Below, in pieces: positions 1,439-2,839 of a stretch of 5,177 nt of DNA. A program made the position numbers and the translations under genes. The stretch lies in the IMG/VR virus record IMGVR_UViG_2737471845_000020, one strand, 5' to 3'. The DNA comes from a virus (Duplodnaviria; Heunggongvirae; Uroviricota; Caudoviricetes). The notes beneath the pieces were generated by a model. That model searched no databases. It was not told the origin of the DNA and saw only the letters and a program-made list of their open reading frames with translations. Numbering within the stretch: the first letter of the stretch is position 1; each line of letters begins with the position of its first letter.

Positions 1439-2657
1439 CTCCACTCTCCTTTTTCTTACCGTTGTCATCGCCAGCAGAGGGACTGGTGGTCATGTTCATC
1501 GGTGTCAGATACACATCACCGCCCGGTCGGGGATTCATATCCTCCAGATCACGGCAGTCATTAGGGGAATAAATCCCCCAGTTGATCCCCGTGGCATACG
1601 CTTCAAAGCGGGATTTCATGTCGCCACGCAACAATGCTCCGGCATTAAATTTGGCGTAAAACCGCCCCTGTTTGCTCTCCCTGACCAGCCCTGTATTGAT
1701 CCGCTGTTCAATACGGGTCAGATACGGCACAAGGGAATAGTTAATGAAACCAAGCCCCAGCTCTTCAATATTGTTGAAGGTGGCGCGATCGGTGTTCTGC
1801 ACCATATGCAGCGGCACGCGGAACAGGCGACAGATTTCTTCCAGCTGAAACTTGCGGGTTTCCAGGAACTGGCTGTCCTCGGCATTCAGTGCCACCGTTT
1901 TCCAGTCCAGCCCCATTTCCAGAATCATCGGACGATGAGAATTTCCCAGCCCGACATGCCGTTCCTCAAAGTCCTTTTTGATACGCGCATAAGCCTGATC
2001 AGAAAGTTGTTGTTCCGTACGCAACACACCGGATGTCACAGCGCCGTTACCAAACAGCCTGGCGCCGTGCTCCTCGGTTGCCGCTGCCAGTGAAATGGCC
2101 TCACGCGCATACGCAATGGGATTCAGCCCGACCAGTCCGTCCAGCGTCAACGTGCGCACATGCCAGATTTCGTCCTGGGTCAGCACATCCACGGAGCCAT
2201 CCGGAAACGTCACCTGATAAACCGGCTGCCACTGGCTGTTCAGCTTCGGTTCCACACAGCCCGGATCTATCGGAAGAAGCTCCACCACTTCCCCCAGTGC
2301 CTTTACCTTGTAGGCGTAAAAATTACCCCGCAGACACAGGCAAACAATGACCAGTTCCCAGAATTCCTGCGGCGTCATGTAGCCATTGGGTTTTGCCGAA
2401 ATCAGCTTATGCAGCCGTTCATCCACCGCCCGTGTTTTAAGGGTGCCGCTGATGTTGTAGAGACTGCAGGGCAGCATACCAACAGACTCAGCCAGCACCC
2501 TGACGCAGGAATAGACCGCCGTCAGCCGCATGGCCCGCTGGCTGCTGATCCGCTTTCCGGTATAGGTGTCATATGACAGCCCGATAGCATCTGCCAGCTC
2601 TGCTGGCGTGGTCACCGGCGCGTCACTTTTTCGTTGAAATAATCCCGAAAAGAACAC
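1416..2657 (-). CDS. Portal protein, HK97 family
   Basis: 413-aa ORF (track 1416..2657). The N-terminal region ...RLTAVYSCVRVLAESVGMLPCSLY... resembles a conserved motif of HK97-type portal proteins, and the size and position between terminase and protease fit. The start codon is GTG (rc of 2655-2657) with a strong GGAGGT SD 6 nt upstream; the next in-frame Met is about 43 codons in. Stop is TGA at 1416-1418, overlapping the protease start by 23 nt. Confidence 0.9.
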   Translation of the reverse strand: MFFSGLFQRKSDAPVTTPAELADAIGLSYDTYTGKRISSQRAMRLTAVYSCVRVLAESVGMLPCSLYNISGTLKTRAVDERLHKLISAKPNGYMTPQEFWELVIVCLCLRGNFYAYKVKALGEVVELLPIDPGCVEPKLNSQWQPVYQVTFPDGSVDVLTQDEIWHVRTLTLDGLVGLNPIAYAREAISLAAATEEHGARLFGNGAVTSGVLRTEQQLSDQAYARIKKDFEERHVGLGNSHRPMILEMGLDWKTVALNAEDSQFLETRKFQLEEICRLFRVPLHMVQNTDRATFNNIEELGLGFINYSLVPYLTRIEQRINTGLVRESKQGRFYAKFNAGALLRGDMKSRFEAYATGINWGIYSPNDCRDLEDMNPRPGGDVYLTPMNMTTSPSAGDDNGKKKESGDADKTAS

Positions 2658-2839
2658 TATTTACCTCCGCCGACAGACTGCCGTGTACGGTCGAGATATC
2701 TCGCCACCAGCCACGACCAGAACAGGCACAAGGCCCCGGCAACAATAAAACCCGACGGGGGATAAATCAGCCATGCACCATACGCCAGCAAAAGCGCACC
2801 CAGCACGCCCACCAGTGGCGTGAGAATCAGCATGATCAT
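2657..2839 (-). CDS. Hypothetical small membrane protein (60 aa, two predicted transmembrane helices) between terminase large subunit and portal
   Basis: ORF track 2657..2839 (-): [60 protein letters not shown]. Two hydrophobic stretches are separated by a PPSG turn, with a basic C-terminal tail. The ATG at 2839 is preceded by an AGAGGT SD 6 nt upstream and lies 11 nt after the TerL stop (TAA at 2851-2853). Its TAG stop overlaps the portal GTG start (TAGTG). Codons are host-like (CTG, GTG, GGC, GCG). No family assignment is possible by eye. Confidence 0.55.

Follow-up and report, generated by a model that had tools for sequence, protein, structure and literature searches.

YmfR/L37-like membrane hairpins form a large phage protein family linked to the HK97-type portal gene

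Two genes that have been annotated for many years without a function are the nearest described counterparts of the one considered here. The first, ymfR (b1150, NP_415668.1), lies in the e14 element of Escherichia coli K-12, flanked on one side by ymfN/aaaE, a terminase pseudogene, and on the other by beeE, a portal fragment, and its product carries the RefSeq name "IPR020297 domain-containing protein"; the second, L37 of phage phiP27, is labeled "putative integral membrane protein." Our gene occupies positions 2657-2839 of a 5,177-nucleotide (nt) stretch of tailed-phage DNA (IMG/VR virus record IMGVR_UViG_2737471845_000020; the whole stretch is called the window below), in which the genes lie on the minus strand throughout. 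It is an open reading frame (ORF) of 60 codons plus TAG (ATG at 2837-2839, TAG at 2657-2659), set between the gene for the large terminase subunit TerL (2851-4608, with the Pfam domains TerL_ATPase and TerL_nuclease and a TAA stop at 2851-2853) and the HK97-type portal gene (1416-2657, GTG start, PF04860, Pfam E = 1.6e-106). It is a real late-operon gene whose product, a hydrophobic helical hairpin, belongs with YmfR and L37 to a portal-linked family, and of this much we are highly confident.

An earlier note on this DNA, made without database searches, had stated that the protein could not be assigned to any family from sequence alone. Profile searches do assign it. The product matches phrog_502 ("membrane protein") over residues 1-55 at E = 1.2e-27, the only PHROG matches at E <= 10 being phrog_502, 7105, 12448 and 33409, all labeled as membrane protein or of unknown function, and a search of clusters built at 90% identity gives 142 relatives (E <= 1e-3). 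It is identical to YmfR at 55 of 60 positions and about 93% identical to L37. The spacer between terminase gene and small gene, and the TAG/GTG junction with the portal gene, are the same in e14 as in the window, and L37 and the orthologs in ST64B and SfII also resemble our gene in length, position between TerL and portal, spacer and junction; e14 differs by the five substitutions and by the decay of its terminase and portal genes, which are intact in the window. Full-length profile and reference matches, a hairpin bearing the family signature and a portal-adjacent position were all found, and by sequence comparison the ORF is an ortholog of YmfR and L37, and so a gene already known as an uncharacterized protein. 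The note's statement that the function is unknown agrees with the literature, which gave no functional study of ymfR or L37 and mentioned ymfR only in deletion lists and one transcriptome table.

Annotation of the gene is uneven. The ortholog is left unannotated in the SfIV records (KC814930/NC_022749), and some GenBank records, for example ON470603.1 of vB_EcoM-720R4 (L283:2960-3136), name it "head-tail joining protein W." Lambda gpW (PF02831) does come from the corresponding operon slot (terminase A - W - portal B) and is of similar size, but it is a soluble protein, whereas the product here is a hydrophobic hairpin. Identity with gpW was rejected, as there is no PF02831 match at E <= 1 and the grand average of hydropathy (GRAVY) is +1.08; gene position alone matches, and the label is a positional mis-transfer from lambda.

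That the ORF is translated as a protein under selection can be judged from 86 parsed related loci (8 species-representative genomes and 78 viral contigs). The 60-codon ORF is intact in 85 of them, the lone frameshifted copy being that of Shigella flexneri CP182557.1 (L009). The ratio of nonsynonymous to synonymous substitution rates (dN/dS, by the Nei-Gojobori method on 34 distinct nucleotide sequences) is 0.24 over codons 1-47, the hairpin, against 0.53-1.55 when that alignment is read in any of the five remaining frames; over the tail codons 48-60 it is 0.90, and the tail varies between relatives save for a terminal GG[K/E/D] that coincides with the Shine-Dalgarno sequence of the portal gene. 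The conservation check that the earlier note had called for thus found an intact ORF under purifying selection, the reading that this is not a gene is ruled out by the conservation and the dN/dS, and the small ORF is a genuine late-operon gene. Further frameshifted or scrambled copies were seen as proteins P0100, P0105 and P0249, and such copies presumably come from decaying prophages. A prophage of E. coli C311 is 98.3% identical to the window across the window's full length, and the counterpart ORF there is a coding sequence called by the Prokaryotic Genome Annotation Pipeline (PGAP), hypothetical protein WP_042974207.1; DNA related to the window occurs in 1961 of 5426 complete E. coli genomes. 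Messenger RNA of K-12 ymfR goes up with the rest of e14 under an SOS-inducing compound (log2 fold change 4.5; PMC10012262).

Both boundaries of the gene are tight. The spacer after TerL is 11 nt long, CAGAGGTAATT, and contains the gene's own Shine-Dalgarno sequence, AGAGG at 2845-2849, which by our reading of the sequence stands 5 nt ahead of the ATG. At the other end the portal GTG (2655-2657) shares one base with the small ORF's TAG (ATAGTG), and the portal Shine-Dalgarno sequence, GGAGG at 2664-2668, lies inside the terminal codons GGC GGA GGT AAA, so that it is built from the small ORF's last glycine codons. The embedded GGAGG and the TAG/GTG overlap at 2655-2659 read as a translational-coupling junction. 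In most of 14 loci of the family and its analogues the stop and start codons overlap or stand no more than 8 nt apart, and the portal Shine-Dalgarno sequence is embedded in the same way; Vibrio K260 is exceptional, its annotated genes overlapping by about 44 nt. The earlier note was correct in every one of these details (60 codons, own Shine-Dalgarno sequence, 11 nt past the TerL stop, stop codon over the portal GTG), and its proposal of co-expression with the late structural genes is upheld.

Within the product, hydrophobic stretches at about residues 2-25 and 31-46 are separated by YPPSG and followed by a basic tail, and an AlphaFold2 model from an 18-sequence alignment has helices at residues 2-25 and 27-57 (mean predicted local distance difference test score, pLDDT, 73). 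Helix 1 (residues 2-25, positions 2765-2836, from hydropathy and AlphaFold2) contains the conserved G11, G14, G21 and W23; across 134 family representatives (clusters at <=50% identity) the glycines are kept in 84-99% and the tryptophan in 82%. The turn, Y26-P27-P28-S29-G30 (2750-2764), corresponds in alignments to a family signature Y-P-P-A/S-G, conserved in the same representatives at Y 74%, P 92%, A 77% and G 74%. Helix 2 (residues 31-46, 2702-2749, from hydropathy and within the AlphaFold2 helix 27-57) has a near-invariant G35, whose equivalent is glycine in 98%. Last comes the basic C-terminal tail (residues 47-60, 2660-2701), fast-evolving by dN/dS and alignments, which carries the portal Shine-Dalgarno sequence. 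The earlier note's picture of two transmembrane (TM) helices and a basic tail is borne out by hydropathy, AlphaFold2 secondary structure and the positive-inside rule, on which our own two-TM call is based. Natural tandem duplications of the hairpin have given rise to four-TM proteins with basic linkers. From those linkers and the positive-inside rule we infer a topology with both ends cytoplasmic and the five-residue turn periplasmic; the tandem-duplicated members and the glycine-rich helix faces suggest that the protein probably sits in the cytoplasmic membrane as a dimer or oligomer.

Comparison with characterized proteins brought out no significant similarity. Pfam, NCBIfam and PADLOC gave no significant match for the small ORF (PADLOC returned 0 families at E <= 10 for it and for its counterpart in PhiR49_2), and a sequence-profile search of the PDB gave noise only (E >= 0.3), with family chains absent from its entries, phage cryo-electron microscopy (cryo-EM) entries included. 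With Foldseek, the best match of the AlphaFold2 model in the PDB had E = 8.7, and the best in BFVD E = 0.11, all BFVD matches being uncharacterized phage proteins; a bare helical hairpin holds little fold information.

The family is far wider than its enterobacterial members. A profile made from both enterobacterial subfamilies and searched against 1.84 billion representatives at the 50% identity level found 602 clusters at E <= 1e-3, nearly all of 47-122 amino acids. They have in common the signature G-x2-G-x6-G-x-W-x2-Y-P-P-[AS]-G...G, a specific one and not a matter of mere hydrophobicity; its three glycines occur in 96-99% of the 134 representatives. Hafnia and Marinobacter supply the named members, whose labels are hypothetical or uncharacterized membrane protein. 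All nine of the distant single-hairpin members whose surroundings were examined (E from 2e-9 to 6e-6) directly precede a PF04860 portal gene. The exception is a tandem-duplicated four-TM member, P0157 (L286:1500-1808), whose neighbors have no TerL or portal match in Pfam; it precedes a 100-amino-acid ORF and then an S78 protease, perhaps in a head module that is reduced or has diverged very far. Other four-TM versions are P0185, P0221 and P0255. Scored with a family hidden Markov model (HMM), phiE125 gp3 reached 45 bits, a Ralstonia phage ORF 33, JuicyJay gp12 25.6, Vibrio K396 25 and K260 24, and since the best of 200 shuffles per sequence scored only 4-15 bits these five proteins are homologues. 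The hairpin family is large and old, and its hallmark is physical and translational linkage to an HK97-type portal gene; we see little room for doubt on this.

Recombination among the window's own relatives shows the same linkage from another side. Match end points in the phage collection place a mosaic junction in the last TerL codons (2869-2908). Phages of the phiP27, SfI, SfII, SfIV and ST64B group are homologous to window positions 1-2868, that is, capsid, protease, portal, small ORF and the final 18 nt of TerL, while PhiR49_2, vB_EcoS-569R6 and others are homologous to 2909-5177 (TerL and TerS, the small terminase subunit). The window's combination of TerL and portal is rare, occurring in 3 of the 86 related loci. 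The remaining 83 loci combine a TerL 3' end that has no relation to that of the window (about 0.55 global identity) with a small ORF of 88-96% identity and, wherever it is complete, a portal 5' end of 72-97% identity. All 86 loci with the window's portal type have the small ORF, counting the frameshifted copy. PhiR49_2, which pairs the window's TerL with another portal, has a different two-TM ORF of 53 amino acids in the slot (phrog_7105), which cross-matches phrog_502 at E = 1.3e-6. TerL is thus exchangeable relative to a unit of small ORF and portal gene, which are inherited together: the small gene travels with the portal, as the junction falls between TerL and the small ORF, and recombination parts it from TerL and not from the portal. 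Even in the metagenomic contig L099, where a block of sugar-nucleotide genes (L099:366-3552; CTP_transf_3, the sialic-acid synthase NeuB and others) separates the small gene from TerL, that gene keeps its overlap with the start of the portal. This block looks like a true accessory insertion, at the very slot where the earlier note suspected one.

To sample the wider population of related portals, 24 phage records other than phiP27 were examined. They were picked from 60 rows taken at even spacing from the 2063 phage records holding a relative of the window's portal. A small two-TM ORF ends at the portal start in nine of them: Vibrio K260 and K396, Burkholderia phiE125 (gp3), Ralstonia YO021_1 (an unannotated record), Mycobacterium JuicyJay (gp12), Pseudomonas phita81A and D14Q, and Bacillus phi4I1 and Clostridium phiCT453B, in both of which the ORF is unannotated. 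In another the slot is filled by a larger, three-segment membrane protein (Cellulophaga phi39:1 gp09), and in three by a small ORF that is hydrophilic; one lacks an upstream TerL, and in ten, including the HK97-like HK106, TerL abuts the portal. Phages without the small ORF had no hairpin fused to the portal N-terminus or to the TerL C-terminus. The premise of the earlier note that in canonical HK97-type modules TerL is followed directly by portal therefore stands for HK106, but not for the nine of 24 related-portal phages that hold a small two-TM ORF in between.

Some of these slot proteins are not recognizably YmfR. Those of the Bacillus and Pseudomonas phages have no detectable homology to it and are conserved within their clades down to 68-75% portal identity, and the ORF of Clostridium phiCT453B resembles the Bacillus type. 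It would appear that non-homologous sequences converge on a two-TM architecture in the portal slot. The Bacillus ORF (L104:1323-1484 in phi4I1; also in BtCS33, phiCM3 and phIS3501) and the Clostridium ORF (L281:884-1075) encode unannotated two-TM proteins of 53-63 amino acids with the motif W/Y-[LI]-E-D...G...G..[IL]A[KR]. About 72 of the 80 related viral contigs keep this type, and the scan of viral contigs supplied the divergence lacking from a tblastn search of phage records with the phi4I1 ORF, which returned only near-identical copies and was uninformative on coding. The clade of Pseudomonas D3 and phita81A has a two-TM slot family of 53-54 amino acids (L107:1227-1391, L112:927-1091, and 78 of 80 loci among L195-L274), which falls below noise with the YmfR HMM. 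Its core AGVYVL-GLGW resembles the subfamily of PhiR49_2 and Vibrio K396, and it may be a very distant member of the YmfR family.

Gluing to the portal gene, exchange together with it, retention in phages of distant host phyla and a slot architecture reached by convergence argue for a role in head morphogenesis or in its coordination with the membrane. We infer that the small gene belongs to the portal/head module as a core accessory rather than being a moron, which among the options listed in the earlier note favors that of an unrecognized assembly factor, its mechanism still being a proposal. To our knowledge T4 is the only phage in which a membrane step of head assembly has been characterized, and for that reason a membrane-sited helper was chosen as the mechanism. 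The earlier note had seen no obvious role for a membrane protein in procapsid assembly, and T4 supplies one: its gp20 portal assembles on the inner membrane, aided by the phage protein gp40 and host YidC (PMC9958956, PMC4493910). By analogy with gp40 and gp20, the YmfR-like hairpin would insert into the cytoplasmic membrane as a dimer or oligomer and would site or promote portal-ring assembly or procapsid initiation there, while translational coupling would deliver portal subunits beside it in matched, low amounts. The proposed model shares with gp40 the feature of a helper, encoded by the phage, for assembling the portal at the cytoplasmic membrane; no sequence relation emerged from the Pfam, PHROG and NCBIfam searches, which included no direct pairwise comparison with gp40. 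T4 gene 40 is not known to lie next to gene 20.

Several observations weigh against a membrane-sited helper of portal or procapsid assembly. Membrane association has been called a peculiarity of T4 gp20, "unlike other portal proteins" (PMC4493910). The tail, the sole part of the hairpin protein able to reach a cytoplasmic portal, is near-neutral (dN/dS 0.90), and the best-conserved element is the turn, which we place in the periplasm; the two together fit a partner in the membrane or facing the periplasm better than a contact between tail and portal. The gene is also dispensable for the portal type, with TerL abutting the portal and no fused hairpin in 10 of the 24 sampled phages (HK106 and nine others). 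No contact between hairpin and portal is on record from experiment or structure, and the searches of Pfam, NCBIfam and the PDB, and of the PDB and BFVD with Foldseek, gave no similarity in sequence or fold to characterized proteins. Finally, the conserved gene order could reflect needs of expression (late timing, low level) and not physical partnership. We take the full explanation, from gene identity through mechanism, as a serious candidate that falls somewhat short of probable, and regard the mechanism taken alone, a membrane-sited helper of portal or procapsid initiation, as possible but doubtful. A broader idea is that YmfR-like hairpins and the non-homologous slot ORFs of Bacillus, Clostridium and Pseudomonas D3-like phages might make up one widespread and unrecognized class of membrane-embedded portal or procapsid-initiation factors; we consider it rather unlikely, though well worth stating.

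Among the alternatives, a moron-type accessory gene would encode a membrane protein that shields the lysogen or the infected cell by superinfection exclusion or abortive infection. HK97 gp15, itself a moron product, and T4 Imm are small inner-membrane exclusion proteins that block DNA entry, and the small two-TM inner-membrane architecture seen here is typical of their kind; the distribution across portal clades is patchy (nine of 24 sampled phages); and the category given to phrog_502 in PHROGs is "moron, auxiliary metabolic gene and host takeover," a label that follows only from the generic name "membrane protein." The genes for gp15 and Imm, however, are expressed from the prophage or early and are scattered in distribution, whereas the YmfR gene lies inside the late head operon, coupled to the portal gene, in a position conserved over long distances. 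Consensus scans of the minus strand at about 2657-2870 found no sigma-70-like promoter or intrinsic-terminator-like site of its own, and in the whole window the counts of such sites are at or below shuffle expectation. Relatives that share the portal never differ in having the gene, phages as far apart as those of enterobacteria and mycobacteria have it in the same position (morons turn over quickly), PADLOC matches no defense family, and K-12 ymfR behaves like other induced e14 genes. The small ORF has a GC content of 57.4% against 51.8% for TerL and 54.5% for the portal gene, a small difference that is expected for an ORF rich in Gly, Ala and Leu. The earlier note's suggestion of a gene spliced in between its neighbors, possibly a moron, is not supported by these results: the scans show no promoter- or terminator-like site belonging to the gene, all same-portal relatives carry it, and distant homologues keep its position. 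A recent insertion is excluded by the depth of a family linked physically and translationally to the portal gene, and a moron is improbable given the missing promoter and terminator, the constant presence with one portal and the want of any defense-family match. Superinfection exclusion, abortive infection and lysis timing may still apply, and are without positive support.

A part in lysis is equally improbable. The protein would time lysis relative to head assembly, either as a hairpin akin to holins, pinholins or antiholins or by modulating membrane potential, and in being small, with a pair of TM helices whose faces are rich in glycine and a basic C-terminus, it does resemble class II holins and pinholins; the tandem-duplicated members also suggest oligomerization in the membrane. 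The likeness in TM number and charged C-terminus is architectural only and is common to many unrelated proteins. Unlike holins, the hairpin is encoded outside the lysis cassette: the gene never adjoins an endolysin gene in the contexts examined, its tight linkage is to the portal and not to lysis genes, and separate holins are present, in the C311 locus as a lambda-family holin accompanied by a GH24 endolysin and an Rz-like protein upstream of TerS, and in L096 as a Phage_holin_3_5 gene. There is no holin-family match in Pfam or PHROGs. A holin-like dual start (M-I-M) was considered and ruled out, since relatives begin MFLII or MILTI.

Slightly less credible still is a virion-associated protein, of which a few copies would be packaged near the portal, released with the DNA and inserted into the cytoplasmic membrane of the next host for genome entry. 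Small integral membrane proteins P20 and P22 at the packaging vertex of PRD1 offer a parallel. Co-expression and co-inheritance with the portal would suit such a protein, as would its occurrence in both contractile-tailed (vB_EcoM) and siphovirus (vB_EcoS) relatives, which shows the gene to be head-linked and not tail-linked. Tailed phages, on the other hand, have no internal membrane to hold so hydrophobic a hairpin, the PDB holds no chain of the family (phage cryo-EM structures included), and the literature gave no proteomic report. The weakest alternative, that the ORF is only a coupling leader which feeds ribosomes to a weak portal GTG and sets the portal:TerL ratio while its peptide has no function, draws on the portal Shine-Dalgarno sequence within the ORF, the stop/start overlap with similar junctions at most of the 14 loci, and tail codons that are near-neutral except for those forming the Shine-Dalgarno sequence, but it is highly improbable in view of the purifying selection on hairpin amino acids (dN/dS 0.24), the specific motif conserved across the 134 representatives and the convergence of unrelated sequences elsewhere on a two-TM architecture, a leader having no need of a membrane hairpin.

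The rest of the window holds the remainder of the head module. A P27-family TerS is encoded at 4608-5090, an S78 prohead protease at 788-1468, and of the major capsid gene only the start lies inside the window. In its longest form, with the ATG at 1468, the protease ORF shares 53 nt (1416-1468) with the 3' end of the portal gene; the start chosen by PGAP in C311 is later, equivalent to window position 1438, and gives a 23-nt overlap. The portal protein itself begins (2628-2657) with a short hydrophobic/aromatic motif found at the start of many HK97-type portals, such as VFFSGLF, MFFSRQLL, VSFFSRIF, MGIFSF and MFLSKLL, whether or not a small ORF precedes the portal gene; this segment might bind a membrane or a partner. 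A scan of genome contigs with the family alignment found 8 loci only, being pattern-based and too narrow for distant members. All were enterobacterial except L006, a 5.6 kb contig of a metagenome-assembled genome (JAEWTL010000102.1, "MAG: Bacillota bacterium"), whose YmfR copy is 92% identical to the window ORF and groups among E. coli and Shigella matches; this is probably a mis-binned or contaminant fragment of an enterobacterial prophage.

What the analysis adds to a gene long annotated is its family, which comprises at least 600 clusters, shows coupling to the portal in all single-hairpin members whose context was checked and is kept across phages of distant host phyla. The breadth of the portal linkage is the interesting part and is not evident from existing annotations, which can be corrected accordingly: the gene or its slot counterpart is unannotated in SfIV, BtCS33/phi4I1 and phiCT453B, and elsewhere is mislabeled "head-tail joining protein W" or "moron." A role in head morphogenesis is readily testable, as lysogens of E. 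coli, Shigella and Salmonella exist. We know of no membrane component for any step of head morphogenesis in HK97-type phages. If the proposal that these hairpins and the non-homologous slot proteins act at the membrane in portal assembly or procapsid initiation is true, membrane-sited initiation of the head would be a common trait of HK97-type phages, whether their hosts are Gram-negative, Gram-positive or actinobacterial.

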